Shown one piece after another: positions 41,299 through 58,603 of a DNA stretch of 64,000 nucleotides. Source of the DNA: an uncultured Candidatus Rokubacteria bacterium (GTDB taxonomy: Bacteria > Methylomirabilota > Methylomirabilia > Rokubacteriales > CSP1-6); assembly GCA_963789955.1 (NCBI GenBank), contig CAWBMV010000034.1, positions 192,001 to 256,000 on the forward strand, in the 5' to 3' direction. The notes under the pieces were generated by a model, which saw only the letters and a program-made list of their open reading frames with translations, did not search any database and had not been told where the DNA came from. Each line of letters begins with the position of its first letter. The first letter of the stretch is position 1. A program made the translations under genes and the position numbers.

Positions 41299-41310
41299 CG
41301 GCGCCGGGCT

Positions 41311-42214
41311 TCAGCCCTTCCGCAGCTTGGGATCGAGTGCGTCCCGGAGCGAATCGCCGAAGAGGTTGAAGCCGAACACGCCGAGGCTGATCGCGATACC
41401 CGGGAACAGCGCGATCCACGGCGCCTTCTCGGCATACGAGGGGGCGGAGCCCGACAGCATCAATCCCCACGACGGTGTTGGCTCCGCCGCTCCCGAGCCC
41501 CAGGTAGGACAGCGCGGCCTCGGCCAGGATCGCGGCGCCGAGCTGCGCCGTGACCATGATGATGTACGGGGCCGTGACGTTGGGAATGATGTGCTGCAGG
41601 ATCACGCGCCGCCGGGACGCGCCGAGCGCCTGCACCGCCTCGACGTAGACGTTCTCCTTCACGGACATGGCGGCCGCCCGCACCACGCGCGCGACGCGCG
41701 GGATGACCGGAATCGAGATGGCGATCACGACGTTGTGAACCGCCGGGCCCAGGATCGACGCGATGGCCAGGGCCAGGATCAGCTGCGGGAACGCCAGCAA
41801 GATGTCCATCAGCCGTTCGAGCAGGAGATCGACGTGGCCGCCCCAGAAGGCGCTGACCACGCCGAGCAGCGCCCCGATCGTGCAGCCGATGAACGACGCG
41901 AAGAATCCGACGAACAGCGCGATGCGCGCGCCGTACATGATCCGGCTCAGGACGTCGCGGCCGAACTCGTCGGTGCCGAACCAGTGCTCCGCGCTCGGCC
42001 GCGCGAACTGCAGGCCGTAGTCGCCGATGTACGGATCGTACGGCGCCAGCAGCTCGGCGAACACCGCCAGCACCAGCATCCCGAGGATGATCACCGCGCC
42101 GGCGGCGCCGAGCGGCTTGGTGCGGACGAACCGCGCCACCACGCCGGCGACGGTGAGCTTCGGCGCCAGGGTCGCCGACGCGGTCGCGTGGGCCAGCTCG
42201 ATGTTCGTCGCCAT
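41311..42214 (-). CDS. Peptide/nickel ABC transporter permease (DppC/OppC-like); one apparent frameshift near 41490
   Basis: Motifs HWFGTDEFGRD and YVEAVQALGAS. The C-terminus SWGLML...FNLFGDSLRDALDPKLRKG* is in a shifted frame. Confidence 0.88.
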
Positions 42215-42219
42215 TGCCG

Positions 42220-43177
42220 TCAGCGGTATCGGATACGCGGATCGAACCACGCGTACGTGAGGTCGACGAGCAGGTTGATCACGACGAAGCCGAACGCGAT
42301 GAGGAAGATCAGCGCCTGCACGACCGGATAGTCGCGGTGCGCGACGGCGTCGACCACGAACCGCCCCACGCCGTTCAGGGTGAACACGGTCTCGGTGACG
42401 ACCAGCCCGCCGATCAAAAAGGCGAACTCGGTGCCGACGAGCGTGATCACCGGGAGCATCGAGTTCTTCAGGGCGTGACGGACGACGACGGCCCGCTCAC
42501 GCAGTCCCTTGGCCCACGCCGTGCGGATGTAGTCCTCGCGCAGCACCTCGAGGAGCGTCGAGCGCGTCATCCGCGTGGTGACGGCGGCGTAGCGATAGCC
42601 CACCGTGAGCACGGGCCAGATCATCATCTGAAAGTTCGCCCAGGGATCGATCCAGGGCGGGGTGAACTCGAGCGGCGGTCCCCACCCGAAGAAGATCACG
42701 AGCATCAGGATGCAGAGGATTCCCACCCAGAACGACGGGATCGCCAGTCCACCGATGCTGACGATGCGCACGAGGTAGTCCACCCAGGAGTCCTGACGGA
42801 CCGCCGCCAGCATGCCAAGCGGAATCGCGATGATCACCGAGACGAAGGTCGCCGCGATCGCCAGCTCGAGTGAGAGCGGCAGCCGCACCAGCATCTCCTC
42901 GATGACCGGACGCCCGGTCCAGAGCGAATTGCCGAAGTCGAAGCGGAGGACGCCCCAGAGCCACGTCCCGAACTGCACCAGCAGCGGCTGGTCCAGGCCC
43001 GAGACGATGGCGCATGTCGGCGAGCTGCTTGGCGTCGATCTGACCGCCCGCTTCGCCGCCGAAGATCAGGAGCGCCACGTCGCCGGGAATGACCCGCATG
43101 ATCACGAACACCAGCGCGGCGGCGCCGAGCAAGGTCGGAACGATCAGCAGGAGACGCTTGGCGACGTAGGTGCCCAT
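42220..43177 (-). CDS. Peptide/nickel ABC transporter permease (DppB/OppB-like); one apparent frameshift near 43000
   Basis: N-terminus MGTYVAKRLL. Motifs DYIRTAWAKGL, VTETVF and RDYPVVQ; ends DPRIRYR*. Confidence 0.88.
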
Positions 43178-43199
43178 ATCCGGCGCGCCGCGCGCTGGC

Positions 43200-44808
43200 T
43201 CAGTCTTCGGACAGCCAGACGTCCTGGAGCTTCTGGTTAGCGTAGTGATTCGGCGGCGCCACGTAGTTCTTCACTTTGGTCCAGTGGACGACGCTGCGAG
43301 TCCACCAGAGACCGGGCATATAGTAGACGTGCTCGAGCACGGTCTTCTGCAGCTGAAGGATCGCCTTGCGCCGTTCCGCGGGGTCGAGCGCGCGCGCCTG
43401 CCGTGAGAACAGGTCATCGACCGCCGGATCGGTGAAGCGGCCCCAGTTCTGCGGATCTCCGGTGGTGTAGCGCCGCAGGAAGATATCGGGGTCGTCACTG
43501 GCCTCGACCGTCGGCGCGACGATCAGCTCGAAGTTGCCGGTGTCTCGTCCGTCGGCGAACCAGGCCGCGGTCTCCTCCGGCCGTTGCTCGGCCTGGATGC
43601 CGATCTTGCGCCACTCCTGAACGGCGAACACCGCGAAGTCCTGATACGGCAGCTTCACGTTTCGGTTCTTGAGCACGACCTTGAAGCCGTTGGGATAGCC
43701 CGCCTCGGCCAGCAGCTTCTTCGCCTCGGCCCGGTTCTTCTCGATGTCCGTGCCGAACCCCGGGAAGCTTTTGCAGCTCGGCCTCCGGCATCGCGAACTC
43801 CGTCCCCGGACGCAGCAGGCCGCCGACGTCCTTCAGGCTCGTGAGCGGGAACAGCACTCGCCCCATCGTGTAGCGATCGAGCGAGAGCGTCAGCGCCTTG
43901 CGCACGCGCTCGTCGGAGAACGGCTTCGCGGTGTTGTTGATCGCGATCCCCCACTGACCGGTCATCGGCGTGTGCTGGACGGCCACCTTGTCGCCCAGCT
44001 GCTTCTTGATCGCCTCGACCTCCGCCAGGGGCAGGTCGCGGAACTCGATGTACGCGCGCCCGGAGCGGATCGCAGCCGCCCGCACCGACGTCTCGGTGCT
44101 GATGAAGAACTTGTAGCCGTTCAGGTAGGGCCGATCCTTGACGAAGTAGTCGGGGTTGCGCTCGCCCTCGAAGCTCGCGCCCGGCGTGTAGCTCTTGAAC
44201 TTGAAAGGACCGGAGCCCATCACGTTCTTCATGAAGTAGTTTGGGTCCTTGTCCAGGTACTTCTTCGGATAGATCACGTTCCACGGCGAGGCCAGATTCA
44301 GAAGCAGCGAGGCCGAGGGGAACTTGAGCTTGAACACGACGGTGCTCGCGTCCGGCGCCTCGATGCTTGTCACGGCCGAGTAGCTGTTCTTCCGGACGCT
44401 GCGTGTCCCTGGGGGCGGGAAGAGGAGCTTGTCGTACGTGGCCTTGACGTCGACGGCCGTCAACGGCGAGCCATCGTGAAACTTGATCCCGGGACGAATC
44501 TTGAACGTGTACGTCAGGGCGTCGGGCGAGATCTTCCATTCGCTCGCGGCGTCCCCGATGATCTTGGGATAGTCGTAGGGGTCCGTCTGAAGCAGGGTGC
44601 TGTAGAGCGGAGCCACGAGCTGGATCGTGGCGAATGTGCTCTCCTGGTGCGGATCGAGACTCGGCGGGTCGGCGCCGATCACGGCCAGCAGAACCCCGCC
44701 ACGACGCGGAGTTTCGGCGGCGTGAATCGCGGGAACCGCCAGCGCGAACGCAACCGTGAGAGCCACGACGAAGCACACCACACGTCGACCCTGGTCGCCT
44801 GCGGCCAT
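43200..44808 (-). CDS. ABC transporter substrate-binding protein, family 5; one apparent frameshift near 43760
   Basis: Signal peptide. Motifs PPSLDPH, KFHDGSPLTA, GSGPFK and ERNPDYF; C-terminus QDVWL in a second frame. Confidence 0.88.
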
Positions 44809-44941
44809 GCACCACCTCCGCGAGCGTGAGACGCTCGATTTGTTTCCTGTACTGATTAGTGGCGGACGGTACCGTGTGAGGCCGCACCTGTCAACCCGTG
44901 CTGCTTGTAACGTCGGCTGTCAGGTTCGATGACGACTGCTC

Positions 44942-45349
44942 TCAGCGAGGGGCGAGCACCATCTGTGTCTGGATCGTCTGGGCCAGCAACCGGCCCGACG
45001 CGTCGGTCACGCGCGTCTGCCACACCATCGTGGTGCGGCCGCGATGCAGCGGCGTGGCTTCGGCGCGCACGACGCCGTCGCGTCCGGCCGCGAAGAAGTT
45101 GGTCTTCGACTCGAGTGTCGTGGTCGAGGCGCCGGGCGGCAGGTTGAGGAACGTCGCGGTGGCGCCGACAGTGTCGGCGAGCGCCATGATCGCGCCGCCG
45201 TGGAGCGCGCCGCCGACCGTTCGGAGGTCGTCGCGGATCGTCAGCTCCGCGACGAGCCGGTCCTTGGAGGCTTCCGTGTAGCGCATGCCGATCAGCCCGG
45301 GCAGAAACGACCGCTGCAAGTCCATGAGCGCATCGAGGTCGATGGTCAC
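44942..45349 (-). CDS. PaaI-family hotdog-fold thioesterase
   Basis: Motifs LHGGAIMALAD, TTTLESKTNF and HRGRTTMVW. AAGGAG RBS. Confidence 0.9.
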   Translation of the reverse strand: MTIDLDALMDLQRSFLPGLIGMRYTEASKDRLVAELTIRDDLRTVGGALHGGAIMALADTVGATATFLNLPPGASTTTLESKTNFFAAGRDGVVRAEATPLHRGRTTMVWQTRVTDASGRLLAQTIQTQMVLAPR

Positions 45350-45402
45350 GAATGTCTCCTTGGATTGATGCGCGCCCAGAAGCGCCCCGAGGATCAGGCG
45401 GG

Positions 45403-45421
45403 CGAGTAGCCGCGGTACTCC
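45403..45421. repeat. att core, left copy: CGAGTAGCCGCGGTACTCC
   Basis: Exact match to 55703-55721. GAGTA/TACTC inverted arms surround a 7-bp spacer. Confidence 0.88.
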
Positions 45422-45466
45422 TCATCCGCCCTGATCCCTCTGATTCGATTGATGATGGCACTATTG

Positions 45467-45483
45467 GGTTGCGCCTGGGTTGC
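45467..45483. repeat. Putative integrase arm-type site, left: GGTTGCGCCTGGGTTGC
   Basis: Exact match to 55616-55632. It is a doublet of GGTTGC with an 11-bp period. Confidence 0.7.
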
Positions 45484-45665
45484 AGGATCTTGCACCAGGT
45501 CGGCCTGCGAGGGCATCCACTTCGCGTAGACGCGGAGCAGCACGCTCGCGTTCGACCAGCCACCCTGCTGCTGAACGTAGAGGAGCGGCGCGTTCCGAGA
45601 CGGCATGATCGAAGCCCACGACGCCTTGCCGATGTCGATCGCCACGAATGACGTACCCCCGGGAC

Positions 45666-45919
45666 GGCAAGCCGAACCAGAACGCCGACATCGAGAGCTT
45701 CAACGGCCGCCTCCGAGACGAGTGCCTCAACGAACACTGATTCACGAGCTTATCGTTTGCCCGTCAGACCCTCGAGGCGGGGCGCCTCGACTACAATGCC
45801 GTTCGACCGCACAGCAGCCTGAACCACGCGGCGCCCACGGAGTTCAAGCAACTCACCATGAAGTGGGCCGCCCACCCGATTTTCACATCCTGAGTGGCTC
45901 AGAGTCGGGGAGCCGGTCG
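45666..45919 (+). pseudogene. IS3-family (IS407-like) transposase C-terminal remnant with probable right end
   Basis: GKPNQNADIESFNGRLRDECLNEH*FTSL...DYNAVRPHSSL with an in-frame TGA at 45738. An IR-like GTGGCTCAGAGTCGGGGAGCCGGTC follows the stop. Confidence 0.85.
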
Positions 45920-46353
45920 GAGGAGCTGGCTCAGTTCAGCGTGGACTTGGCTCGTGTGGTGAGGGCATCGCGGGGAGGAACCTAAAGCCGGTTAGGTAGC
46001 CTCGTCAACGACTATGTAACGACTATGTTTTGATACGGCCACCGTCACCGCTAGCGGCAAAGGGACCTCGATTCGAGAATGGGTAGTGGGGCATCCAGCA
46101 GAAAAGGTAAGTGAGCTAATACTCACGCCCACCCAAGCCCTCCTGACGTGGGCGTGCCGGGTCGCGATCGTGGTGCCGCGTGGGGGGACCGGGGCGCGGG
46201 GTGCGATGGCGAAAGCGCGTTTGAAGTTCCTACGCTCGACCTCCGGCTCCCGCGCGCGCGGCACCCGGCGCGGCTTCGGGGTCGACCCCGCTGGCGGTCT
46301 CCCGCATGGCTCCGCGCACGGCCGTCCGACCCATCGCGTCGGTCACGTCGACG

Positions 46354-48138
46354 TCAGCCATCGATCGACAGGCGCTCGAGCTCGCGTCCCAGCATCGCGT
46401 GGACGGCGCGCTGGGCGACGATCGGGCGCACGGTGTGGTCGCGCCCGGGCAGCGTCTCCAGGACAGCGTTGGGCCACTCGTCCATCCGGGCGAGGATGCC
46501 CTCCGAGCGGAGCTCGTCGTAGACCGGCTCGTCGCCGGAGAACCCGAGGACGACCCGGGTCCCCCGATCGCGCAGCGCATCCATGAGGCGCGCCGTGGTG
46601 GGACCCGTCGCGTCCGACCGGGCCGCGGCTGTCAGGCGTCGCGGAGCCCGGACGGCGGCCTTGATGGCGCGCCCGGCCACGGCCCGCGAGACTGCGACCA
46701 TCCGCGAAGCACCCAGCTCGCCCCGGGCGACCCGCCGCCAGACCGAGGGCTGGAGCAGCCGTCCGATCTTCGCCGCCTCCCGGCGCTGGAGCAGCCCGGC
46801 GTCCCACACCATCGCCCCCGGGTTGACGACGAGCGCGGCGATCACCCGGCCGTCCGTCGCCGCCGTGTTCACCGCCCAGTAGGCCCCCGCGCAGAGGCCG
46901 ATCAAGACGAAGCGCGGACCGAGGCCGCGCGCTTGCAGGTCATCCAGGATCGCTCCGACCTCGGCGCCGTAGGCGGGGGTGTAGAAGTTAGCGACGTCAC
47001 GATAGCGGCCCGGGTCGCCGTCCGAGTCGCCGATCCCCTCGAGGTCGACCCGGAACGTGGGGACACCGCGCCGGGTCCAGTCCCGGGCGATCTCGGTCCA
47101 CAGCCGGTTCGGGCCCACCCGCCGGACCGCGCCGGCGTTGAGGAAGACGGCGCAGAGCGGCGTGGCCGGGGCGTCGACGGGCTCGGCGAGCAGGCCGAAG
47201 AGCTGGCCGAACGGCTGCGCGATATGGACGGGTGTTTCCCGGATCGGCCGGCCGTCCAGGCAGAGCTCGAGTCGATCGAGCGCCTCCGGCGCCTCGACCG
47301 CGACGGGGCGCGGCCGCCCGACGGGGGCGCCCGCCAGCCATCGGCCGACCCGGTCGAAGACCTCGGCCGGCGGCGTGTACTGCTCCGGATGGAAGACCAT
47401 GTCCGTCCAGCCCGGGCCGGGGGCCGCCGTGACGTCGACCCCCGCCTCCGCCAGGTGCGCCTCGAGCGCGGCGTCGCGAGCCAGGCCCTCGCGCTGGAGG
47501 AGCAGGGCGCGCTGGAGGCGGCCGAGGGGCAGCTGGTCGAGCTCGAGCGGCGCGATCGCCGCGATCGTCTCCGCCGCCAGGACGAACCCGCCCACCTCCA
47601 GCCAGCCGTCGGGCAGGACGGTCGGCTCGGGCTCGCCGCTCACGCTGTACCGATCGCTCTGGAGAGCGGCGAACGCTCGCTGCTCGCGCAGGAACGCCCG
47701 GCCCCGGGAGGGCGCCGCCCAGAGCACGAGGTCGTCGACCGGCGCACCGTCGGCGATGGCCTTGCCGGCCACGAGACCGCCCAGCCCCAGGCCGATCAGC
47801 GCGACGCGGTCCACGCCCGGGCGGGCGGCGAGCCAGGCAGCGGCGGCGCCGATGGCACTGGTCCAGGCGTCGAGCCGGGCCGGATCGCCCGGCGTGCCGG
47901 CGCTGTCGCCGATCCCCGGCAGGTCGATGCGGAGCGTCGGGTGTCCGTCGGCCGCCAGGCGTTCGGCCCAGGCCCGCCGGCTGGCGTACGACGTGATCTC
48001 GTCCCAGCCCCACGGCCCGACGATGAGGACCGCGGTCGCGGAGTCCGGGCCCGAGGCGGCGTCGTGGAACGTCCCGAAGACCGCGTCGGGCGACGCCCGC
48101 AGCCAGATCGAGCGCGCAGCCGGGGACGGGACGGTCAC
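46354..48138 (-). CDS. Tandem double alpha/beta-hydrolase-fold protein
   Basis: GTG at 48138 overlaps the GH2 TGA. Two repeats of RxDLxGIGDS; elbows GLGLGG and GLCAGA; also RRVGPNR and DHT. Confidence 0.8.
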   Translation of the reverse strand: MTVPSPAARSIWLRASPDAVFGTFHDAASGPDSATAVLIVGPWGWDEITSYASRRAWAERLAADGHPTLRIDLPGIGDSAGTPGDPARLDAWTSAIGAAAAWLAARPGVDRVALIGLGLGGLVAGKAIADGAPVDDLVLWAAPSRGRAFLREQRAFAALQSDRYSVSGEPEPTVLPDGWLEVGGFVLAAETIAAIAPLELDQLPLGRLQRALLLQREGLARDAALEAHLAEAGVDVTAAPGPGWTDMVFHPEQYTPPAEVFDRVGRWLAGAPVGRPRPVAVEAPEALDRLELCLDGRPIRETPVHIAQPFGQLFGLLAEPVDAPATPLCAVFLNAGAVRRVGPNRLWTEIARDWTRRGVPTFRVDLEGIGDSDGDPGRYRDVANFYTPAYGAEVGAILDDLQARGLGPRFVLIGLCAGAYWAVNTAATDGRVIAALVVNPGAMVWDAGLLQRREAAKIGRLLQPSVWRRVARGELGASRMVAVSRAVAGRAIKAAVRAPRRLTAAARSDATGPTTARLMDALRDRGTRVVLGFSGDEPVYDELRSEGILARMDEWPNAVLETLPGRDHTVRPIVAQRAVHAMLGRELERLSIDG

Positions 48139-50738
48139 GCCGGCCGCGCCGCGGTCGCGATGGCGACCCGTCCATCGAGGTTGAGCGCGGTGAGCGCGCC
48201 GCCCGCGAAGGCCCGCCCCGCCATGAGGGGCCGCAGCGCGATCGTGCGCGACCCGCCCGGCTCGACCGAGAAGGCGTCGTCGGACGGCGCGAAGCCGGCC
48301 ACGTGGATCCGGACGCCGTACGCCAGGCGCCGGGTGGCGACCGTCAGGCGGACGCTCCCGTTCGGCTCGGCGCAGGCGCTCGCGGCGAGCCCCAGGCGCT
48401 GCTCCGACTCGACCGCCCGGGGCCGTCCGGCGGGGAAGTGGAACGCCTGCGAGATGAGCTCGACGCCATCGGCGCCGTCGCGCTCCAGGCTCGCCACGAT
48501 CGCGTCCTGGGCGGGCGGGCCGAACCGGTATGCCCAGGCCGCGTCGACGAAGTGTCCGATGAGCACCTCGACATCGCGCTGCGCGGCGCCGTGGGCGGAC
48601 ACCTCGAGCCACTCTTCGCCGTGGCCCACCGGCCGCTCGAGGTCCGAGTACAGGGCGATCCGGACGCGCGCCCGCAGGGCCGCCGGGCCATCGTTCGCGA
48701 TGTGCGCGATGACGCCCCCGATGCCCTCGTCGACCAGCCAGATCGCGCTCGGGGCGAGGATCCGGCGCAGGTGGTGATAGGCGGTCTTCGGGCGGCCGCG
48801 GTCGTCCACGACGCCCCAGCCCGCGCCGGCGACGAGGTCGCGCAGCCACAGGATCAGGCCGCCGCCGCACGGCGACCCGGCCCGACGCCACTCCCCGTAG
48901 ACCTGCTCCATGACCTCTCCGGTCACCGCCCGGGACAGCTCGAGGTAACGGGCGACGTCGTCCCGGCGCAGCGCGGCGGGATCGACCCGGAACAGGAGCG
49001 CGAGGTAGTGGTCGCGCACGTCGTCGAAGTCCCAGCCGGCCCCCGGGTCACGGGCCACTCCGGCCTTCCAGCGCGGATCGTGGATGAACGCCTCGTCGGG
49101 GGATCCGGGGAAGATCGTCGCCAGGGTCTCTTCGTCGGGCACGTTCGCGAACGCGAGGGACTCGCCCGCGAAGCGGAGCCCGCTCGTGCGCGCGTCCGAG
49201 AGCGGTCCGCGATAGCCGCCCACCCCGTAGTAGTTGGTCACGCCCCGATCGGGCCGGATGGGCAGCTCGCCACCGAACGGGGAGGAGGGCACGTAGATGG
49301 CGTCGAGACCGGCCTCGCGCGCCGTCCCGGGGAGCCAGTGGTCGAAGAACGGGATGCGCGCCAGGGCCATGTCCAGGCCGAGCATCGCCACCTGCTGCTC
49401 GATCTCGCTGCTGCCGCACAGGACCGCGGTGCTGGGCCGGCCGGCGAGCCGCTCCACGACGTCCCGGGCCTCCGCCTCCGCCACCCACCGGAAGTCGTCA
49501 TCGGTGAACGGGTAATCCATGCTCGCGAACATGAGATCCTGCCAGACCATCACCCCGAGCTCGTCGCACAGCTCGTGGAAGGCGTCCTGCTCGTAGGGAC
49601 CGAAGCCGGACAGGCGGAGCATGTTCATGCCGGCCGCCCGGACGGTCTCGATGGCCGCCCGCAGCTCCGCCCTCGAGGGCGTCAGGCCGACGATGTCGAG
49701 CGGCATCCACAGGGCCCCCCGGGCGAACACCGGGACGCCATTGACGTGGATGGACAGGCCGTCGCGGTCGATGTCGTGATCCGGCGTGGGGCCCGGGGTC
49801 AGCGTCCGGAAGCCGACCCGCCCCAGGTCGATCGTCGTCGGCCGCACGTCCTCGCCGAGCAGGATCCGGACGTCGTGGAGGGCGGGCTCTCCGTGCGTGT
49901 GGGGCCACCAGCGGCGGACGGCCGGCACCCGCAGCCGGCCCTCCGCGATGAGCTCGTCGGCGGTCCCGTCGGCGGCCTCGACGATGCCGATCGCCGCGCG
50001 GTGGCGACCCGACGGGCCGTCCAGCTCCAAGGTCGTCCGCCCGGTCGGCGCCCCGCCGAGGTTCCGGAGGCGGAGGCGCACGGACAGGATCCCGTCGTCA
50101 CCGTCGAGGCGAGGGCGGAGCGTCGCTCCGAGCACGGCGACCCGCCGCCGGCGCTCGAGCCGCACCGGGCGCCACGGTCCGACCGCGACGGGACCGGGCG
50201 AGAACCCCGGGATCCGGCCGAGCAGCATCGTTCGGAACCAGCGCAGGTTGTTGTCCGGCACGAGCCGGGTCCGCCAGCGCGCCCGCGGCCGGCGCTGTGT
50301 GCCTAGGAGCGGGGCGAGCGCGCGACAGCGGATCGCGAGCTCGTTCGCGCCCCGCAGGAGCGCCCCGACATCGAGCGCGTGGCGCGCGAACATCGAGTCG
50401 CCCTGGAGCAGCAGGTGTCCGTTCAGCCAGACCTCGGCCACGGTCGCGATGCCGTCGAGGTGGAGCACGACCTCCTCGTCGGTCGCGGCGGGCGCGGCCT
50501 CGAACGTCGTCCGGAACCACCAGTCCTGGCTGTCCAGCGGGCCGGCCTCGCGACCCGCGTCGCGCAGGAGGCCGGCCGCCGTGCCGGGGACGCGGGCCGG
50601 GAGCCAGTCGAGGTCGTCGATCGCCTCCGGCGAGGGCCGTCGATCGGGCTCGGCCCAGGCGGCCTGCCAGCCCTGCTCGAGAGGGAGCTGTTCATACCCA
50701 TCGACGTGGGTGCGCGCAGGGGTCAGGCCGGCCGGCAT
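48135..50738 (-). CDS. Glycoside hydrolase family 2 (beta-mannosidase-like)
   Basis: Motifs LDGIATVAEVWLNG, WWPHTHGEP, NMLRLSG, CDELGVMVWQDLMFA, LCGSSE (acid/base position) and FAGE (nucleophile position). Confidence 0.88.
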   Translation of the reverse strand: MPAGLTPARTHVDGYEQLPLEQGWQAAWAEPDRRPSPEAIDDLDWLPARVPGTAAGLLRDAGREAGPLDSQDWWFRTTFEAAPAATDEEVVLHLDGIATVAEVWLNGHLLLQGDSMFARHALDVGALLRGANELAIRCRALAPLLGTQRRPRARWRTRLVPDNNLRWFRTMLLGRIPGFSPGPVAVGPWRPVRLERRRRVAVLGATLRPRLDGDDGILSVRLRLRNLGGAPTGRTTLELDGPSGRHRAAIGIVEAADGTADELIAEGRLRVPAVRRWWPHTHGEPALHDVRILLGEDVRPTTIDLGRVGFRTLTPGPTPDHDIDRDGLSIHVNGVPVFARGALWMPLDIVGLTPSRAELRAAIETVRAAGMNMLRLSGFGPYEQDAFHELCDELGVMVWQDLMFASMDYPFTDDDFRWVAEAEARDVVERLAGRPSTAVLCGSSEIEQQVAMLGLDMALARIPFFDHWLPGTAREAGLDAIYVPSSPFGGELPIRPDRGVTNYYGVGGYRGPLSDARTSGLRFAGESLAFANVPDEETLATIFPGSPDEAFIHDPRWKAGVARDPGAGWDFDDVRDHYLALLFRVDPAALRRDDVARYLELSRAVTGEVMEQVYGEWRRAGSPCGGGLILWLRDLVAGAGWGVVDDRGRPKTAYHHLRRILAPSAIWLVDEGIGGVIAHIANDGPAALRARVRIALYSDLERPVGHGEEWLEVSAHGAAQRDVEVLIGHFVDAAWAYRFGPPAQDAIVASLERDGADGVELISQAFHFPAGRPRAVESEQRLGLAASACAEPNGSVRLTVATRRLAYGVRIHVAGFAPSDDAFSVEPGGSRTIALRPLMAGRAFAGGALTALNLDGRVAIATAARPA

Positions 50739-50742
50739 GGTG

Positions 50743-52644
50743 TCAGCGTACGGCGTCGCGCAGCGAGCTCATCGCCTCGGTCCATGCGTCGCCCAGCGCA
50801 CCCATGGCATCCGTGGGATCGAAGGGCCGGCGTCGGGCCAGCTTGAAGCCGAGCAGCTTGCAGCCCTCGACGATCCGGGCCATCGCCGCGGTCGCCGGGG
50901 CGCCCTCGTCGCCGAGCAACCAATCCACGTGGGAAGCGAGGAGCTCGAAGCCGGCCCCGGCCATCCGGAACGTGGCGAACGTGAACGCGTGGTACAGCGC
51001 GTCGTCACCGGCGAGGAGGGCGGGCAGGTCGGCCGCCAGCCGCGCGCCGAACCGCTCGAACGGGTTGCCGGCGACCACCCGGTCGAGGTGGCCGCGGAGG
51101 ATCCCCCGGGCCGCCGCGCGCAGCGCATCGCCGCGCAGCGTGGGGCCGGCATCGAACCGGATGAGCTCCGTGTACGGCGGCAGCACGTCGTCGGACCAGC
51201 CCGGCCCCAGGCGGAAGGCGCCCCGGAAGTCGTGGTCGGCCAGCTCGTACAGCGACGTGTTGTGGAAATACCGGAACCGCTGCCCGGCCAGGTCGATCGC
51301 CTCGGCGATCACGCCGGTCTTGACGTGGCCCCGTCCGTAGGTCGTGGCGGCCGTGTCGGGCAGGTACCAGGCATCGAGCTCGATGGTCATCGTCCGCCCG
51401 AGCGCGATGAGCTCGGCGATCTGGTCCGGGATCGGGCGATACGGCTGCGTCTCGTGGATGTCCATCCCGTACAGCAGCTCGAGGTCGACCGCGAGCGGCT
51501 TGAAGAACACCCACTGGTCGTTCTCGAAGTCCATCCGGACGAACGATCCGAACGCCGCCAGCGGCTCGTCCCCGCGGGCGTGGAGCAGCTCGATGACGAT
51601 GTCCGTGAAGCAGTCCGTCTCGATGTACGTCCGCTCGCCCGCGTGGAGCGGATGCGGGCGGTACGTCGCCGGGTCGTGGCCGAACAGGCTGACCAGGCCG
51701 GTCGGCACGGCGTTCACGGCCAGCAGCTCCGCTCGCACCTCGTCGGGCCAGGCGTTCAGGTCGAGTCCGTTGGCCCGGAACATGGCCAGCGTGATCCGCT
51801 CCACGCCAAACCCGAGGCACCCGGTATGGGCGATCCCACCGCCCTCCAGGCCGAACCCGTACAGGAGCGTGAAGTGGTCGAGGTGGTAGTTGAACGAGGC
51901 GATCGCGGTGGGCTCCGGGCCGCCGATCTGGGCGACCAGCTCGAACTTCAGCTCCTGGGCGCGCTGGTTGGCGGCGAGCATCCGGCCCGCCCGCCCGAAG
52001 AACGGATCGGCCGCGACCTCCGACTCGGGGCGGATCCCGAGACGGCGGAAGAGCTCGATCGTGCGCTGCTGCCAGTCGTTGCGCCAGGCGGCGACGGTGT
52101 CGGGCGCGCCGATCCGCACGAGCTCGTGCATGTGGAAGATCTGCATCCGGGCCGGGTCGCCCGACGGCTCGTTGCGGAACACCCACGACGCGCCGGTGTC
52201 GACCGTCACGCCGTCCGCCGGCAGCGGCCCGCGCTTGGCGATCTCGGGGTACACCGGGTAGCAGGCGGCCGGCAGGACGACGAGGTCGGTCATCGACTGG
52301 AACCGGCTCCAGTCCTCGTGGCGGCCCGCGACGGCTTCCTGCTCCGCGGCCTCGGCCTCGGACCCATCGAACGAGAAGACCGTGCCGAGCAGGTGCGGGA
52401 ACGATCCCAGGTAACCGTTGGTCTCGAGCTGCTGGCGGGGCAGGAGCGGCGGGAAGCGCATCGGCTCGGCGCCGTCGGCTGCGCCCGCTCGGGACAGCGC
52501 GGCGCAGAACCCCAGCCGGGCCCGCTCGAAGTCGGATCCCTGCCCGTAGACGCCGGGCAGGACCGTCTCGACGAGGAGGCCGTGGTCGATGAGGGCGGCG
52601 AGGAACGCCGCCTGCTCAGCGGTCGCCGCCCGGAACTGGGTCAT
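50743..52644 (-). CDS. SerRS-like amino acid:[carrier protein] ligase (aa 1-~308) in frame with a DUF1839-family protein (from GTG 51717); possibly two genes joined by a 1-nt insertion
   Basis: Ligase motifs YLGSFPHL, PAACYPVYP, FRNEPS, FHMHELV, DPFFGR, SFNYHLDHF and HTGCLGFGVER. DUF1839-like motifs HPLH..ETDCFTD, DFENDQWVFFKP and YFHN. Confidence 0.85.
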   Translation of the reverse strand: MTQFRAATAEQAAFLAALIDHGLLVETVLPGVYGQGSDFERARLGFCAALSRAGAADGAEPMRFPPLLPRQQLETNGYLGSFPHLLGTVFSFDGSEAEAAEQEAVAGRHEDWSRFQSMTDLVVLPAACYPVYPEIAKRGPLPADGVTVDTGASWVFRNEPSGDPARMQIFHMHELVRIGAPDTVAAWRNDWQQRTIELFRRLGIRPESEVAADPFFGRAGRMLAANQRAQELKFELVAQIGGPEPTAIASFNYHLDHFTLLYGFGLEGGGIAHTGCLGFGVERITLAMFRANGLDLNAWPDEVRAELLAVNAVPTGLVSLFGHDPATYRPHPLHAGERTYIETDCFTDIVIELLHARGDEPLAAFGSFVRMDFENDQWVFFKPLAVDLELLYGMDIHETQPYRPIPDQIAELIALGRTMTIELDAWYLPDTAATTYGRGHVKTGVIAEAIDLAGQRFRYFHNTSLYELADHDFRGAFRLGPGWSDDVLPPYTELIRFDAGPTLRGDALRAAARGILRGHLDRVVAGNPFERFGARLAADLPALLAGDDALYHAFTFATFRMAGAGFELLASHVDWLLGDEGAPATAAMARIVEGCKLLGFKLARRRPFDPTDAMGALGDAWTEAMSSLRDAVR

Positions 52645-53827
52645 CAGACGTCCTTAGCGATCAGCAGCAGGCTGGCGTTCGTCTGGTGGATCCGGTCGTT
52701 GGCCACCATGAGGCTGGCCGACATCGTGTCCCGCAGGTGGCGTCCGACGCTGAACGGCGTGTCGTTCTTGTAGCCGACGATCCCGCACACCGCCATCGCC
52801 CCCTGGCAGACCCTCGGCGCCTGCTCGGACGCCGCGATCTTGAGGTTGTTGAAGCGCAGGATCATGGCCATTGTCGAGAGCTTCTCGCGGTCGTCGCCGA
52901 CGGACGAATCGGTGAAGTCGCGCATGGCCGAGCTGACCTCGGCCCGGAGCAGCGACAGCTCGCTCATCAGGTGCGAGAGCCGCGTGGCGGTCGGCGGCAC
53001 GATGTCGGGCCGGCCCTTCGCGGACGCCTTGACGAACGCCCGCGCCCGGTCGAACGCGTCGGTGGCGATGCCCAGCCACAGGTGCGACCACAGGATGTGC
53101 GAGATCGGCACCATCGATTCGATACCGGCACCGCGAGAACGGCGCCGGCAGCACCTGCTCGACGGGGAACTCGGCCCGGACGACGTAGCCCGGCGAGCAC
53201 GTGCCGCGCATGCCCAGCGGGTCCCAGGTTCCGGTCGGCTCGAGGGTGTACTGCTCCGGTGGGTCAGGACGAGGACCTGGTCGCCCGGCTCGGCGTCGGG
53301 AGCCCGGCGCAGGGTCGTGAGCAGGTCGTCCGCGTCGGCGCCGTAGGAGACCGTCGGCGCCTGCTTCTCGAAGGTGGCCCGGCCGTCGCCGGACGGGGTG
53401 ACCGCCGCGATCGAGCGCCCGAGGTCGCCGCCCGTGCCGACCTCCGAGGTGACCGAGGCAACGAGTCGCTGGTCGCGGGCGACCTCGCGCAGGTACGCCG
53501 CGAACCAGGCGTCGCCGTCCACATGGCGCACGATCGTCGCGATCATGGATCTGGTGCATCGCGAAGACCATCGCGCTGGCGCCACACCGGCGGCCGAGCT
53601 CGAAGCACGCCGCGGCGATCGCCGGGAACGAGACGCCGCCGCCGCCGTACTCCTCGGGGATGAGCGCCGACAGGGCTCGCTCGGCCCGCAGGGCATCGAT
53701 GGTCTCCGCCGGGAACCGCGCGTCGCGGTCGACTCGGTCGGCGTTGGGCGCCGCGAACTCGTCCGCGATGCGGCGGATCGGTCCGGGTGAACGCCTGGTC
53801 CCGGTCCAGCGCGGCCGCGGTGGTCAT
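52644..53827 (-). CDS. Acyl-CoA (probably acyl-carrier) dehydrogenase; several apparent frameshifts
   Basis: ATG at 53827 overlaps the ACP TGA. Motifs MVFAMHQI, SVTSEVGTGGD, WDPLGMRGTCS and GRHLRDTMSA. TGATG overlap with the ligase. Confidence 0.82.
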
Positions 53828-54069
53828 TCTGCGGACTTCCCCAGCTGCTGGAGCGCTTCCCGGATCGAGGAGACGCTCTGGAAGACGCTCCGCTTGAGCA
53901 TCGAGTCCGGGAACTCCACGTCGAACGCCGTCTCGAGGGCGAGCATGAGGTTCACGCTCGCATGGGAGGTCATGCCCGCCTGGTACAGGTCGGCCTGGTC
54001 GCCCAGGGTCTGGACGTCGACCGACAGGCGGCCGTGCTCCTGGATGATCTGTCGGATCTTGTCGCTCAT
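53824..54069 (-). CDS. Acyl/aminoacyl carrier protein cognate to the aa:CP ligase
   Basis: 81 aa, DLYQAGMTSHASVNLMLALE...FDVEFPD. Non-canonical TSH motif in place of DSL. Confidence 0.88.
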   Translation of the reverse strand: MSDKIRQIIQEHGRLSVDVQTLGDQADLYQAGMTSHASVNLMLALETAFDVEFPDSMLKRSVFQSVSSIREALQQLGKSAE

Positions 54070-54171
54070 GACCGTCGCCTCGTCCTCGCCTCGTGGTGCT
54101 ATTTCGCCGTGGGCCGCGACCGGGATTTTCGGCCCGGAGCAAGTGCAGTCGAGGCGTCAACGCCCACGGAA

Positions 54172-55050
54172 TCAGACAACGCCTGTGCCGGTTGGAGGAC
54201 CTCCGACCGTCCACGCTTCACCCATGATCTCGGCAAGACTTCTAAAATCACCCGTGTACGGGCTCACCGCCCACTGACACGGAACCGAGATCGTCACCGG
54301 AGTCTTGTCGTTGTAGTCCAGTTCCGTCCAATCCGATACGTCGATGACGTTCTCGTCGGCGTCGACGTCACCGAGCGTGAGGATCCAACCGAGCGGCCAG
54401 AAGGCGAATCCCGCTACGAGGTGACCCTTGCGCCGCTCAAGCTTCAGCGCGAACCCGGTCATCATTCCGCCAGGATTCGCTCTGAGGTAGAGCCAGAGGC
54501 GTAGTGGAGCGATGCGCCGTATTGCGGTGCGGTCAAGCAGCAATTCCCGGAGCACCGGGTACCTCGCCGTGATCCCGGGTTGGGACGACGCAGCGAATGA
54601 GGCGAGCGCTTCCTTCGCGACGCGCTGGCGGTGAGCGGTGACGTTCAGCGGGCAAGACCTCCCGGCGTTCTTCGGCTGGGCAAACGGCGAGGCGAGGCGC
54701 ACGAATCTGACGTATGCCGGGTTGTACCAGCTGCCGGTGTGGTTGTTGCAGGAGGCACACAGCGTCTCGAGCGTCGCGCCGTAGATGCGCTCACTCCGCC
54801 AGCGTACCGCTCCGGCGACTGCAGACGCGGCGTCATCGATCATTCCCCGGAACATCGGACCGACGTTTCCGGCCTTCTTCGAGGGCGCGTGCTCCGCGGT
54901 GAGCGCAGCTTGGGACCCGCAGATGCAACATGTAGAGGGGTTACCGAGCGCCTCGATCTCGGCAATCTCCGCCATGAGGCGAGCCGCCTCTGCCTCCATA
55001 CCAGGGAAATGGCGCTCGTCGCCCGGTCTGGTGACCCACATCTTCAGCAT
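54172..55050 (-). CDS. Hypothetical protein with an HNH-endonuclease-like zinc-finger N-terminal domain
   Basis: Pattern CCICG...EHAPSK...TLCASCNN. Visibly lower GC than neighbouring genes. Confidence 0.6.
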   Translation of the reverse strand: MLKMWVTRPGDERHFPGMEAEAARLMAEIAEIEALGNPSTCCICGSQAALTAEHAPSKKAGNVGPMFRGMIDDAASAVAGAVRWRSERIYGATLETLCASCNNHTGSWYNPAYVRFVRLASPFAQPKNAGRSCPLNVTAHRQRVAKEALASFAASSQPGITARYPVLRELLLDRTAIRRIAPLRLWLYLRANPGGMMTGFALKLERRKGHLVAGFAFWPLGWILTLGDVDADENVIDVSDWTELDYNDKTPVTISVPCQWAVSPYTGDFRSLAEIMGEAWTVGGPPTGTGVV

Positions 55051-55132
55051 GGTGTCGATTGTCTCACCCGGAGACGGTGCGTCGCACGAGCGGATCGCGG
55101 TGAGGCGCGAATGAACGAGGCCGCGGGACTCG

Positions 55133-55291
55133 CTACCGCGCTCGCCGGCGCTGTATCGGGCGTTGACGCTTTGGCTTGTCGCCGCGCGGTGACCTCCCGG
55201 TGTAGTCTCGCTTTGGCTCGGCCGCCTTGGTCACCTTCGGGCGTGCCAGGTCGGGCTCGTCGGCTGAGATTCCGTTTTGGTTGGTCTCCAT
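55133..55291 (-). CDS. Small basic hypothetical protein (52 aa)
   Basis: Strong RBS GAGGAGGT precedes METNQNG...; Arg/Lys-rich C-terminus. No family recognised. Confidence 0.35.
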   Translation of the reverse strand: METNQNGISADEPDLARPKVTKAAEPKRDYTGRSPRGDKPKRQRPIQRRRAR

Positions 55292-55615
55292 GCCTACCTC
55301 CTCTCCGTAATTGTGGCGAAGTTCCGGGGAGCACTTCAAGTCGATGACCTGGCGCTCTCCCTACTTCGACCTCGTCTCCGGCCTCTTCGTCCCGCGGCTC
55401 GTCACCCGGGATCCAGAGACCGGCGCCGGCGGGCCGCGGTGACGTCAGGTACGACGCACGGCCGCTTCGGACACGACTCATCGGCCTCGCGGCTGATCGG
55501 CGTGAGGCGCGGCAGGGAGGACGCAGGACAAGCGTTCTGTAGCGCGTGGCGCGCTCGAGATTCCCCGGAGACGAGCAGGCGCGCGTGACCCGGGCAGGGG
55601 AGGAAGAGAGAGCCC

Positions 55616-55632
55616 GGTTGCGCCTGGGTTGC
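55616..55632. repeat. Putative integrase arm-type site, right: GGTTGCGCCTGGGTTGC
   Basis: Exact match to 45467-45483. An extra inverted GCAACC lies at 55661. Confidence 0.7.
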
Positions 55633-55693
55633 GACTTCCTGCCGCGCTATGCCGCTTCTTGCAACCACCCGCTCTGGAACTACGCGGGGTTTC

Positions 55694-56278
55694 TCACTCC
55701 TTCGAGTAGCCGCGGTACTCCATCTGGTTGGCGATCCGGACGCGCGCGTCGGTGCCCCAGTACTTCTCGACGAGATAGAGTCCGAGATCGAGCGACGACG
55801 ACACGCCGCCGGCCGTCACGACGCGCCCCTCGTCGACCACGCGCCGATTCGTGACGACCTCGCGGCAGAGCGGCCGCAGCAGCTCCACCGCCAGATGATG
55901 CGTCGTCGCGCGCTTGTCGCGCAGATACCCCGCGCGTCCGAGCAGGAGCGCGCCGGAGCAGACCGAGGCCAGCGGCCGTTCGTCGCCCCACGTCTTCAGG
56001 TAGTCGATGGCGCGCCGGTTGTCCATCAGCGCGACGGTCCCGAGCCCACCCGCGACGTAGAGGAGGTCGAAGCCCGCGAGGTCTTCGTACACCGCGTCGG
56101 GTTTGAGCATCAGACCAGACTCGTCGACGATCTCGGCCTCGGTCCCGATGATCCGGTGGGTCACACTCGAATCGATGGACATCGCCGCGACGCGTCGCAG
56201 GGCGTCGTAGGCGCCGATCAGATCGAGGAGCGTCAGCCGCGGGAAGACGAAGAACGCGATGCGCTTCGGTGCCGCCAT
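55694..56278 (-). CDS. DJ-1/PfpI family protein (island integration target)
   Basis: Motifs LLDLIG, VAGGLG, SVCSGA, ATTH, TAGGVSSSLD and MEY. Confidence 0.9.
   Translation of the reverse strand: MAAPKRIAFFVFPRLTLLDLIGAYDALRRVAAMSIDSSVTHRIIGTEAEIVDESGLMLKPDAVYEDLAGFDLLYVAGGLGTVALMDNRRAIDYLKTWGDERPLASVCSGALLLGRAGYLRDKRATTHHLAVELLRPLCREVVTNRRVVDEGRVVTAGGVSSSLDLGLYLVEKYWGTDARVRIANQMEYRGYSKE
55703..55721. repeat. att core, right copy (inside the DJ-1/PfpI 3' end)
   Basis: Exact match to 45403-45421. Encodes EYRGYS on the minus strand. Confidence 0.88.
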
Positions 56279-56282
56279 GGCG

Positions 56283-56807
56283 TCAGCAGGGCTGGACCGA
56301 GGCCTTGTGGCGCTGCGCGAGCGCCTGGTAGCCTTCGGGATTGGCGCGCACCCAGCGCTCCGCCGGGGTGCCGGCGAGCGGACCGCGCACCTTGGCCGGC
56401 GCGCCGAGCGCGAGGGTGCCCTCGGGGATCTCGGTCTCGGGCGTCACGAGCGCGCCGGCGGCGATCATCGCGCGCGCGCCGATGCGCGCGCCGTCGAGCA
56501 CCGTCGCGCCGTTGCCGATCAGGCACTCTTCTCCGAGCCACGCCGCGTGAATCGTGCAGTTGTGGCCGACCGTCGCGCCGGCGCCGATCTCGGTCCCGCC
56601 ACGCGGCGTGACGTGCACGACCGCGCAGTCCTGGACGTTGGCGCCGCGGCGTACGACGATCGGATTGAAGTCGCCGCGGAGCACGGCGTTGTACCACACG
56701 GACGCGCGCTCCTCGATCGTCACGTCTCCGACGATCACGGCGGTGGGCGCAACGAACGCGGTGGGATGGACTCTCGGGCTCTTGCCCTCGAAGCTGAACA
56801 GTGGCAT
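56283..56807 (-). CDS. Gamma carbonic anhydrase family (YrdA/PaaY-like) hexapeptide-repeat protein
   Basis: MPLFSFEGKSP, VLRGD, NVQDCAVVH, TVGHNCTIH and LIGNGATVLDG. Confidence 0.9.
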   Translation of the reverse strand: MPLFSFEGKSPRVHPTAFVAPTAVIVGDVTIEERASVWYNAVLRGDFNPIVVRRGANVQDCAVVHVTPRGGTEIGAGATVGHNCTIHAAWLGEECLIGNGATVLDGARIGARAMIAAGALVTPETEIPEGTLALGAPAKVRGPLAGTPAERWVRANPEGYQALAQRHKASVQPC

Positions 56808-56876
56808 GGGCTGGACCCTCGCAGTATGCTCGGAGTGCCCACATCTTACTCCCACACGCCGCGACAGGAGGAGGGA

Positions 56877-57902
56877 ATGCCGTTCCCGAAGATCGCGGCC
56901 GTCGCCACTGCGACGCCGCCCCATCGCTACACGCAGTCGCAAGTCCTGACGCTCGCGGGGTATCGAGACGAGGAGCGGAGCGGGTTTTTTCGTCGCAGCG
57001 ACATCGACGGCCGCTATCTGTGGATCGATCCGGCGACGTTCCGGCCCAACGAGTCGGTCGACGAGCTCAACGACCGTTTTCGCGAGGGCGCGCTCGAGCT
57101 CGGCGAGTCGGCAGCTCGCCGGGCACTCGACCGAGCCGGCTGGAAGATCTCCGATGTGGATTTCATCGCGACGACGACGTGCACCGGGCGCCTCACGCCG
57201 AGTCTCGACGCCCGCCTGATCGCCCGGCTCGGCTGCCGCGCGGACATCCAGCGCGTCCACGTCGGCGACACCGGCTGCGCCTCCGCGATGGTGGCGCTCC
57301 AGCAAGCGTCGAACTACGTCACTGCGTTTCCCGGGCGCCGGGCGCTGGTCGTCGCGGTCGAGATCTGCTCGGCGACCTACTTCCTGGACGACCGGCTCGA
57401 GAGCGCGGTGGCCCACGCTATCTTCGCCGACGGCGCCGGCGCGCTCGCGGTGACGACCGACGGACCGGGGCCGTCGCTGGTCGCTCAGCGGACGCTGTTC
57501 CGCTCCGAGCATCTCGACGCGATGGGATTCGAGTATCCGGGCGGCCGGCCGCGCGTGGTGCTCTCCAAGGACGTGCGCCGCATCGGCGCGGTCATGATGG
57601 GCGAGATGGCGGCGATCCTGATGGGCACGCAAGGGCTCAAGCGCGAGGACATCGCGTACTGGGTCCTCCACTCCGCGGGACGACGCGTGATCGACCGCGC
57701 CCGAACCTTGCTCGAGCTCAGCGAGGAGCAAGTCAGCCACTCGCGCTCCGTGCTGCGACGCTTCGGCAACATGTCATCGGCCACGATCCTCTTCGTCCTG
57801 GAAGAAACGCTTCGCGACGAGTCTCCGGTTCCCGACGATTGGGGCGTCATGATCGGTCTGGGGCCCGGCTTCGCCGCCGAAGGAGCGCTGCTGCGGTGGT
57901 GA
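56877..57902 (+). CDS. Type III polyketide synthase (chalcone/stilbene synthase family)
   Basis: Catalytic triad Cys (TGCAS), His (LHSAG), Asn (GNMSS). Also EICS, FADGA and GLGPG. AGGAGGAGG RBS. Confidence 0.93.
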   Translation: MPFPKIAAVATATPPHRYTQSQVLTLAGYRDEERSGFFRRSDIDGRYLWIDPATFRPNESVDELNDRFREGALELGESAARRALDRAGWKISDVDFIATTTCTGRLTPSLDARLIARLGCRADIQRVHVGDTGCASAMVALQQASNYVTAFPGRRALVVAVEICSATYFLDDRLESAVAHAIFADGAGALAVTTDGPGPSLVAQRTLFRSEHLDAMGFEYPGGRPRVVLSKDVRRIGAVMMGEMAAILMGTQGLKREDIAYWVLHSAGRRVIDRARTLLELSEEQVSHSRSVLRRFGNMSSATILFVLEETLRDESPVPDDWGVMIGLGPGFAAEGALLRW

Positions 57903-57906
57903 TCCC

Positions 57907-58603
57907 GTGAAACGGGCTGACGGCGCGCGGGAGGTGCTCGACGGGGCGGTCGCGACACAAGAGCTCGCGGCCTCGCTGGCGGACATCGACCGCCTCAACA
58001 GCTGGTTCGGCGGCTACGCCCTCTCGCTGCGCGCGATCCGCCGTCTGGCGGCCGAGGTCCCGCGCGCTCGGCCGCTTCGAGTCATCGACGTCGGCGGCGG
58101 GACGGCGGCGTTCGCGGTGCGCGTGGTCCGGTGGGCGCGGCGCAGCGGTCGCGACCATCCGCGTCGTCGTCGTCGATCGCGACCCGACCTCGCTCCGGCT
58201 CGCGCGCGCGGCCGTCGCGGCGTACCCGGAGATCTCGCTGGTGTGCGGCGACGCGGCCGCGCTGCCGTGCCGCGAGCGGGCGGTCGACATCGTCACCAGC
58301 GCCCTCACGCTCCATCACCTCGAGCCGGCGCAGGCCGCCGCGGGGCTGCGCGAGATGACGGCGGCCGCGCGGATCGGGGTGGTCGTGAACGATCTGCTTC
58401 GGCGCCGGCTCTCGCTCGGCCTCGTGTGGCTCGTCACTCGTCTCCTGGGTTGCCACCCGATCTCGCGTCACGACGGCCCGCTCTCGGTGCGGCGCTCGTA
58501 TTCGCGCGACGAGCTGCGGGCGCTCGCCGAGAAGGCCGGCGCGCGGCGGCTGACGATCCGCGAGTACCCCGTGCTGGGTCGCCTGGTGGCGGTCCTGTCG
58601 TGA
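57907..58603 (+). CDS. SAM-dependent methyltransferase associated with the type III PKS; one apparent frameshift near 58155
   Basis: EVLD..LNSWFGG and IDVGGG, then in a second frame TLHHL, VNDL and HDGPLSVRRSY. Confidence 0.82.

Follow-up and report, generated by a model that had tools for sequence, protein, structure and literature searches.

The amino acid:[carrier protein] (aa:CP) ligases acylate the phosphopantetheine of a carrier protein encoded in their own operon with glycine or alanine and do not use tRNA (PMC5370406, excerpt; here and below, "excerpt" marks a source available in part). In 2010, amide transfer of the loaded residue to a cell-surface amino sugar and monooxygenation by a redox enzyme were predicted (PMC2922099, note in proof, excerpt). 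The papain-like fold of the DUF1839 protein, its active site, read as Cys-Thr-His, and a five-gene neighbourhood were described in 2023 (PMC10318531), the only source in the literature searched that contains the word DUF1839. The clusters of Bradyrhizobium (Bll0957) and Agrobacterium (Atu2573, with the DUF1839 protein Atu2574) have the same ligase family and zinc ligands as the locus described here, and their genes for the carrier, the acyl-CoA dehydrogenase (ACAD)-like protein, DUF1839, and the glycoside hydrolase family 2 (GH2) enzyme stand in the same order (PMC10318531 supplement 3, excerpt). This locus, a minus-strand operon of six genes at 46354-54069 (carrier protein, ACAD-like flavoenzyme, ligase, DUF1839, GH2, and double alpha/beta hydrolase), lies in a stretch of 64,000 nucleotides, hereafter the window, from an uncultured Candidatus Rokubacteria bacterium (GenBank assembly GCA_963789955.1, contig CAWBMV010000034.1, positions 192,001 to 256,000). 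The gene set (2023) and the transfer idea (2010) are already published, and the window holds a further member of this known system.

The core of the cassette, from the carrier through the ACAD-like gene, the ligase, and DUF1839 to GH2, is found in this order in all 16 close loci whose flanks are complete, and the double hydrolase follows GH2 in 13 of them, which supports the view of an earlier note on this DNA that the genes travel as a unit. The overlaps that the note had taken as signs of tight coupling are all present (ATGA between carrier and ACAD, TGATG between ACAD and ligase, GTGA between GH2 and hydrolase), and DUF1839 and GH2 are 4 nt apart. DUF1839 also occurs in 65 plasmid records, of which 13 were viewed; 11 of these have the whole core, and in the other two it lies damaged amid insertion sequence (IS) genes. 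A crude hydropathy scan found no clear membrane segment or signal in any cassette protein. The favoured reading, held tentatively and with a chance put a little under even, is a cytoplasmic line in which glycine or alanine is loaded on the carrier, oxidised there, and transferred by DUF1839 to an amino sugar of a surface polysaccharide precursor. The genes, their conserved order, the island around them, and the catalytic residues kept or lost are observed directly; the pathway steps of this copy are predicted.

The ligase scores 366.6 bits against NF005479 (cutoff 357) and the carrier 113 bits against NF005480 (cutoff 72). The earlier note had described a ligase with its zinc ligands kept and its tRNA-binding domain absent, and this holds: the Cys/Glu/Cys residues, which we take to be the zinc-binding positions, are retained, the protein aligns over its full length to Bll0957, which has no tRNA-binding domain, and its match to SerRS is limited to the catalytic core. 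The cognate carrier is encoded within the ligase's own operon, and its serine is invariant in two alignments (16/16 and 30/30). At the position two residues past the third zinc cysteine, 16 of 30 ligases have Gly, the window's among them, and 14 have Ala, as does Bll0957; presumably this position separates a Gly-specific from a broader ligase, and glycine would then be the shared substrate. The family scores and the Bll0957 alignment support the loading of a small amino acid, as the note had proposed, and the residue that the operon puts on its own carrier is likely glycine or alanine; in the favoured line, the ligase would place one of the two on the carrier phosphopantetheine.

As for priming, the cassette had been pictured as travelling without a phosphopantetheinyl transferase (PPTase) and as needing a host enzyme such as the Sfp-type one at 34036. 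The first half is true of the island and only partly of its relatives, as an AcpS gene stands just upstream in four of the 16 close loci; a partial AcpS by the copy in genome G011 falls below the cutoff. The second half, as regards that Sfp, is unsupported, given that the relatives' own PPTases are of the AcpS type and that the Sfp-type gene sits between a protein of the polyketide synthase/non-ribosomal peptide synthetase (PKS/NRPS) type and a thioesterase; since the host, with four PPTases, has its own AcpS-type enzyme, the one at 34036 is not needed. The carrier would be primed by a host PPTase, more likely AcpS than this Sfp. The PKS/NRPS-type cluster itself spans 29837-35561 and comprises a 1424-aa AMP-binding/KR/carrier protein, the Sfp-type PPTase, and the thioesterase.

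The DUF1839 protein gave a fold model with a predicted local distance difference test (pLDDT) value of 96.6, which matches CcbD with Z 20.1, a root-mean-square deviation of 3.2, and 286 aligned residues, followed by AziU3/U2 (Z 18.8) and CtaG (17.2), while the next row stands at 8.1; Foldseek gives the same top matches. C35, H130, T133, and H151 are conserved. CcbD links a carrier-bound amino acid to an amino sugar as an amide, by way of a Cys thioester (PMC12945683, excerpt), and CtaG, AsbE, and BtrH have its architecture in common, as does AziU3, with other chemistry (PMC12865890, excerpt). DUF6005, a remote homolog of DUF1839 (PMC10318531 supplement, excerpt), is AsbE, a carrier-to-amine acyltransferase (PMC11317620, PMC6836290, excerpts). 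At the sequence level, the DUF1839 profile found nothing meaningful among PDB sequences, and BtrH_N matched 6 of 94 DUF1839 members (best E 0.031). In the favoured line, DUF1839 would take the acyl group onto Cys35 and hand it to an amine, in a ping-pong reaction like that of CcbD. The predicted complex of DUF1839 with the carrier lends this weak support: it scores 0.53 against 0.01 for the best control, with contact agreement of at least 78% and a partner pLDDT of at least 85. The mark used for such complexes is reached by 116 of 157 solved pairs and 2 of 215 mismatched ones, but only 18 of the 157 reach it with a score of 0.60 or below, as both mismatched pairs do, and a similar CcbD-carrier complex has already been solved.

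The flavoenzyme has the ACAD fold, as judged from the model of an intact ortholog (locus L007; fold search Z 38.8-42.2). Acyl-CoA dehydrogenases draw their catalytic base from a glutamate at either the MCAD or the IVD position. The former is Val or Ile in 103 of 120 homologs, the other 17 being unmatched by the pattern, and the latter is an invariant Ser. The earlier note had expected a simple dehydrogenation on the carrier with a loss of 2 Da, which is doubtful with the catalytic Glu missing at both canonical positions; because this base is missing and glycine has no beta-carbon, plain alpha,beta-desaturation is unlikely. Judged from these residues, N-oxygenation or imine formation is the more likely reaction and plain desaturation the less likely one, and in the favoured line the enzyme would oxidise the carrier-bound residue at the nitrogen or the alpha-carbon. 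Group D two-component flavin monooxygenases (KijD3, DnmZ, DszC) reach scores tied with those of dehydrogenases. No flavin reductase gene was found in the island. Downstream of the cassette, L008 (15338-19213) and other Chloroflexota loci repeatedly carry genes for a carboxylesterase, a monooxygenase of the HpaB type, and a flavin reductase. The reductase might serve a monooxygenase, or the recurrence may be plain synteny.

The GH2 enzyme keeps both catalytic Glu residues when aligned with Man2A of B. thetaiotaomicron, including the position changed in 2wbk. Ser rather than Asn precedes the acid/base Glu in 26 of 26 aligned sequences, for which reason the substrate may differ from that of beta-mannosidases; the nucleophile motif is present in 24 of the 26. 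The last protein of the operon, 594 aa long, consists of two alpha/beta-hydrolase domains (Pfam), of which the N-terminal one resembles exosortase-associated hydrolase 2 and has no nucleophile (GLGLGG), and the C-terminal one resembles hydrolase 1 and has a Cys nucleophile elbow (GLCAGA) and a late Asp-His. Its scores of 76.7 for TIGR03100 (cutoff 168.45) and 73.1 for TIGR03101 (cutoff 202.75) are both under the cutoffs, and the C domain has only weak matches in the PDB. This fused arrangement of a nucleophile-less hydrolase-2-like and a Cys hydrolase-1-like domain recurs in 20 of 20 homologs. In what would be the weakest step of the favoured line, the Cys domain may unload or transfer carrier-bound acyl groups and GH2 may trim or recycle a sugar intermediate. 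The place of a glycosidase and a hydrolase among the core members, and the arabinose uptake and catabolism genes that flank two Burkholderia copies, would also suit a catabolic line, in which the two enzymes would cleave a group off an incoming glycoside for the carrier enzymes to process; this is very improbable, as ATP-dependent loading of a free amino acid on a dedicated carrier is a biosynthetic start, and no uptake system is conserved with the cassette.

Part of the case for the proposed acceptor comes from the neighbours of the cassette in relatives, where the flanks of the close loci were scanned over 92 of 201 called open reading frames (ORFs), chosen by eye. Ten of the 16 close loci have, no farther than about 10 kb away, at least one gene for a glycosyltransferase (GT), Wzx, Wzy, a sugar transferase, or a full-length protein of the CapD/PglF type, the last being present in seven of the ten; five other loci have weaker sugar genes only, and one, heavily frameshifted, has none. 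The earlier note had suggested looking for glycosyltransferases or flippases beside such loci. The glycan genes of these wider classes near 10 of 16, the Burkholderia placement described below, and the fold match of DUF1839 make the transfer to a glycan, which the note had inferred along with transfer to a glycoside, likely. In the window's host, a CapD/PglF-type gene stands between two DegT aminotransferase genes on another contig (C16), and such genes are common. In Rhizobium gallicum (L032, 9304-9477), the cassette comes after an 'exopolysaccharide production repressor' gene where the nif cluster ends.

In Burkholderia, the five core genes lie between two Crp-type regulators and one sigma-54 regulator inside a Wzx/Wzy cluster. 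Six loci are listed between berB and berA (PMC9684580 Table 2, excerpt), which fits this placement, and Bcam1334, a TIGR03100-type hydrolase, lies inside the bep operon beside the AT3 gene Bcam1333 (PMC3584217, excerpt). The locus tags Bcam1343-1348 are absent from the main text of PMC3584217, and the excerpts of PMC9684580 and PMC5552954 contain no discussion of them. In the corresponding cluster of B. pseudomallei, insertion in becG, annotated as an acyl-CoA dehydrogenase, lowered the biofilm optical density (OD) to 0.84 from 1.25 and gave smooth colonies (PMC5507470 Table 1, excerpt).

Several points weigh against amide transfer to an amino sugar of a surface polysaccharide. The neighbourhood counts come from 16 kin loci and have no background control; of the plasmid loci viewed, only 4 of 13 have a polysaccharide cluster nearby and 4 of 13 have no glycan-synthesis gene near them, and in the window, no glycan gene lies in or beside the island. 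The gene becG was matched to the cassette flavoenzyme by position and annotation, not by sequence, and its insertion may be polar, no complementation being seen in the excerpt. The Bep polymer is neutral and contains only Gal, Glc, and Man, with no amino sugar; it was extracted with 0.3 M NaOH and measured in NaOD, conditions under which esters would be lost (PMC7084887, excerpt). The amide model does not fit Bep itself, since an amide would probably survive the alkaline extraction. On the enzyme side, AziU3 has the same fold as DUF1839 and makes aziridines, and dehydrogenases and monooxygenases tie in both the fold and the profile searches with the flavoenzyme. The site of DUF1839 is read in PMC10318531 as Cys-Thr-His, a rearrangement relative to the CcbD/CtaG triad, and for this reason the protein is said, on the strength of its model, only to work like CcbD, CtaG, AsbE, and BtrH, and membership in their group is not claimed.

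The composition of Bep and its alkaline work-up would suit another product, an alkali-labile ester on the hydroxyls of a neutral exopolysaccharide. The Cys hydrolase domain would make this ester, with a membrane AT3 protein where one is present, and DUF1839 would act on a carrier-bound intermediate. The pairing of Bcam1334 with Bcam1333 in the bep operon points the same way, as do the double hydrolase gene of L027, which precedes GT4 and Wzx genes, and the AT3 gene directly before the carrier in Mycetohabitans. Set against these, the characterised acyl-transferring relatives of the DUF1839 fold all make amides, the hydrolase is missing beside 3 of the 16 close loci, and the single AT3 gene of the window's host is on another contig; the ester, in both of its parts, is judged rather unlikely. 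The alkaline work-up could also have hidden an N-oxidised or oxo-acid substituent of surface polysaccharides (N-hydroxyglycyl, oximinoacetyl, glyoxylyl, or pyruvoyl type), made by an ACAD-fold N-oxygenase working on a carrier-bound amino acid and a papain-like Cys-Thr-His transferase, and missed in Bep for that reason; the module would move between phyla and plug into the glycan pathway of each host. This more specific idea is speculative and seems unlikely as a whole.

The glycan neighbours could also reflect no more than shared precursors, the product being a small diffusible acylated glycoside or amino-sugar conjugate (a signal, protectant, or antibiotic-like compound), with GH2 taking off or swapping a sugar handle. 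The six genes form a closed unit with no glycan genes in Azospirillum, Phyllobacterium, and the window, CcbD, CtaG, AsbE, and BtrH all belong to small-molecule pathways, and the core includes a cytoplasmic glycosidase with both catalytic Glu residues. Both the diffusible product and the reading of the neighbours as precursor suppliers are distinctly unlikely, however, as the core has no conserved companion among transporters, resistance genes, or glycosyltransferases, and the cassette lies repeatedly inside polysaccharide clusters in three phyla.

The set of six genes listed in the earlier note stands. The window departs from its account in two points: in the ACAD-like gene, three-frame translation shows four frameshifts at 53130, 53257, 53547, and 53778, and ligase and DUF1839 form a single in-frame 633-aa ORF with an extra base near 51724. 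The comparison contigs are independent assemblies, 99% identical to the window copy. None of the contigs from the independent runs X1, X2, and X18 shows the indels at 53130, 53257, and 53547; that at 53778 is likewise absent, and the extra base at 51724 is lacking in the X1 and X18 contigs and in loci L003 and L004. In each of the 34 further locus records tested, of which 32 are distinct, ligase and DUF1839 are separate genes. A real ligase-DUF1839 fusion is rejected on these grounds, and a pseudogenised ACAD is unlikely with its frameshifts absent in independent contigs; long open frames in G252 and G303, considered as further fusions, are not fusions. The assembly of this contig is indel-prone, and the ACAD frameshifts and the fusion are most likely assembly errors, which is the simplest reading because host genes outside the island carry similar single-base indels relative to the independent contigs. 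Further single-base insertions of this kind lie at 41310, 42996, 44830, 55668, and 58154, some of which break host genes.

These indels, five in the window copy, are one argument for regarding that copy as an inert passenger, either with some of the frameshifts real or in a host that has no acceptor. The decayed mobility genes, the lack of a glycan gene in the island, and the lack of any RNA run carrying the stretch among the 24 runs listed, in a search directed at DNA, could be added to it. The indels are absent from the independent 99%-identical assemblies, however, with host genes similarly hit, the catalytic residues are all kept, and near-identical copies are widespread: 20 of the 24 runs contain part of the stretch, and the 17 with half or more of the sampled words are all from soil or rhizosphere. 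An inert copy is accordingly improbable.

The operon sits in a genomic island of 10.3 kb (Table 1), delimited by a 19-bp repeat that has exactly two copies genome-wide and duplicates the end of the target gene; four same-genus genomes (G006, G012, G011, and G014) have an empty site with one repeat copy and the flanking genes adjacent. Only an interrupted rve_3 core was found and no intact integrase, and 45394-45645 has no Pfam match. Of the mobility claimed in the earlier note, past horizontal acquisition is supported by the repeat and the empty sites; present mobility is not, with no intact integrase. A chimeric contig is rejected, as two X1 contigs matching 45029-49040 and 49011-56339 span both island ends.

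Table 1. Features of the island, in window coordinates.
Feature	Position	Strand	Basis
Left copy of the 19-bp direct repeat; duplicates the 3' part of a DJ-1/PfpI gene	45403..45421	.	Single copy at empty sites
IS integrase-core (rve_3) remnant with stop	45651..45893	+	Pfam rve_3 in two pieces, E 4.5e-9 and 1.1e-7
Double alpha/beta hydrolase, 594 aa	46354..48138	-	TIGR03101 73 bits, TIGR03100 77 bits; 20-homolog alignment
GH2 beta-mannosidase-like glycosidase, 867 aa	48135..50738	-	Pfam; catalytic-site alignment; hydropathy scan
DUF1839, papain-like domain and helical bundle; predicted carrier-dependent acyltransferase of CcbD/CtaG/AsbE/BtrH type	50743..51717	-	Pfam 268 bits; fold model
aa:CP ligase, SerRS-like catalytic core	51714..52644	-	NF005479 above cutoff; Bll0957 E 1.9e-69
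ACAD-fold flavoenzyme without canonical catalytic Glu; four probable assembly frameshifts	52644..53827	-	Frame view, contig comparison, alignments
Dedicated carrier protein (ACP), 81 aa; Ser35 the predicted phosphopantetheine site	53824..54069	-	NF005480 above cutoff
Passenger ORF, 292 aa, two Cys pairs	54172..55050	-	No Pfam/NCBIfam match; unnamed Atlas clusters
Right copy of the 19-bp repeat, in the 3' end of the intact DJ-1/PfpI gene (55694-56278, -)	55703..55721	.	

A member of the 90% cluster of the host's DJ-1 protein bears the name of the host phylum, Methylomirabilota. Of 251 genomes from this phylum, two have DUF1839, the window's among them, and the second copy (G011) is 48% identical and branches elsewhere in the DUF1839 and ligase trees; vertical inheritance in the phylum is rejected on these grounds. 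In both trees, the window's proteins fall with Chloroflexota copies, to which its DUF1839 is 74-80% identical. The trees are midpoint-rooted and have no clade test, the ligase tree is a quick version, and the frameshifted L021 forms a long branch; within the likely donor class, too, DUF1839 has a patchy distribution (8 of 251 genomes). For these reasons, a Chloroflexota-type donor is likely rather than proven. An identical cassette in three phyla was considered and rejected: L003 and L004, with 99% DNA identity and labelled Miltoncostaeaceae and Verrucomicrobiia, are short contigs, and the flank of L004 matches other contigs of the host genome at 95-99%, so that both are probably mis-binned pieces of the host lineage. 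In the same genus, G011 holds an independent six-gene copy (L022, 6690-16003) with the partial AcpS gene and an IS481-type transposase upstream.

Among the other features, the 292-aa island ORF has unnamed Atlas neighbours, with HNH_5 in 13% of the members of one cluster. Over 41001-59000, the X1 contigs are about 94% identical to the window left of 45029 and about 99% identical from 45029 to 59000, past the right end of the island, which is possibly the mark of a recombination tract. To the right of the island, 56259-59802 holds genes read by eye as a type III PKS-like gene, a methyltransferase, and an FAD oxidoreductase, with DNA conserved in same-genus genomes. At 43200-44808, there is one ABC substrate-binding gene, where several same-genus genomes have three to four tandem paralogs before a thioesterase gene.

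The earlier note took the product of such operons to be undescribed, and the literature searched, with subscription papers mostly outside it, gave no demonstration of the product of an aa:CP ligase operon. The CcbD fold match, the missing Glu, and the Bep/Bec placement reduce the question of that product to specific assays, and the window preserves both junctions of a cross-phylum acquisition in a widespread soil lineage. As a discovery, the locus is modest because its gene set and main idea are already in print.

Compared with the Bradyrhizobium and Agrobacterium clusters, the window's host belongs to Methylomirabilota and its cassette probably comes from a Chloroflexota-type donor. The lincosamide system CcbC/CcbZ/CcbD, together with CtaG, AsbE, and BtrH, has in common with the cassette a papain-like domain with a helical bundle, a carrier-bound donor (predicted for the cassette), and a conserved Cys, while the identity is 10-11%, a site read as Cys-Thr-His stands in place of Cys-His-Glu/Asp, and a ligase like class II aminoacyl-tRNA synthetases replaces the adenylation domain. 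The bep/becA-R locus of Burkholderia places the five core genes between regulators of the BerA and BerB types, with a TIGR03100-type hydrolase in the polymer operon, whereas the window copy has neither polymer genes nor regulators and its hydrolase is coupled directly behind GH2. The exosortase-A-associated hydrolases of TIGR03100 and TIGR03101 are the best NCBIfam matches of the two hydrolase domains; in the window, these domains are fused and far under both cutoffs, and the island has no exosortase or PEP-CTERM context. DltA/DltC and AlmE/AlmF follow a logic like that of the cassette, in that the residue reaches a surface glycopolymer by way of a dedicated carrier charged by a ligase, whereas their ligase and transferase folds are unrelated to those of the cassette, which has no membrane transferase and carries a flavoenzyme and a glycosidase in addition.

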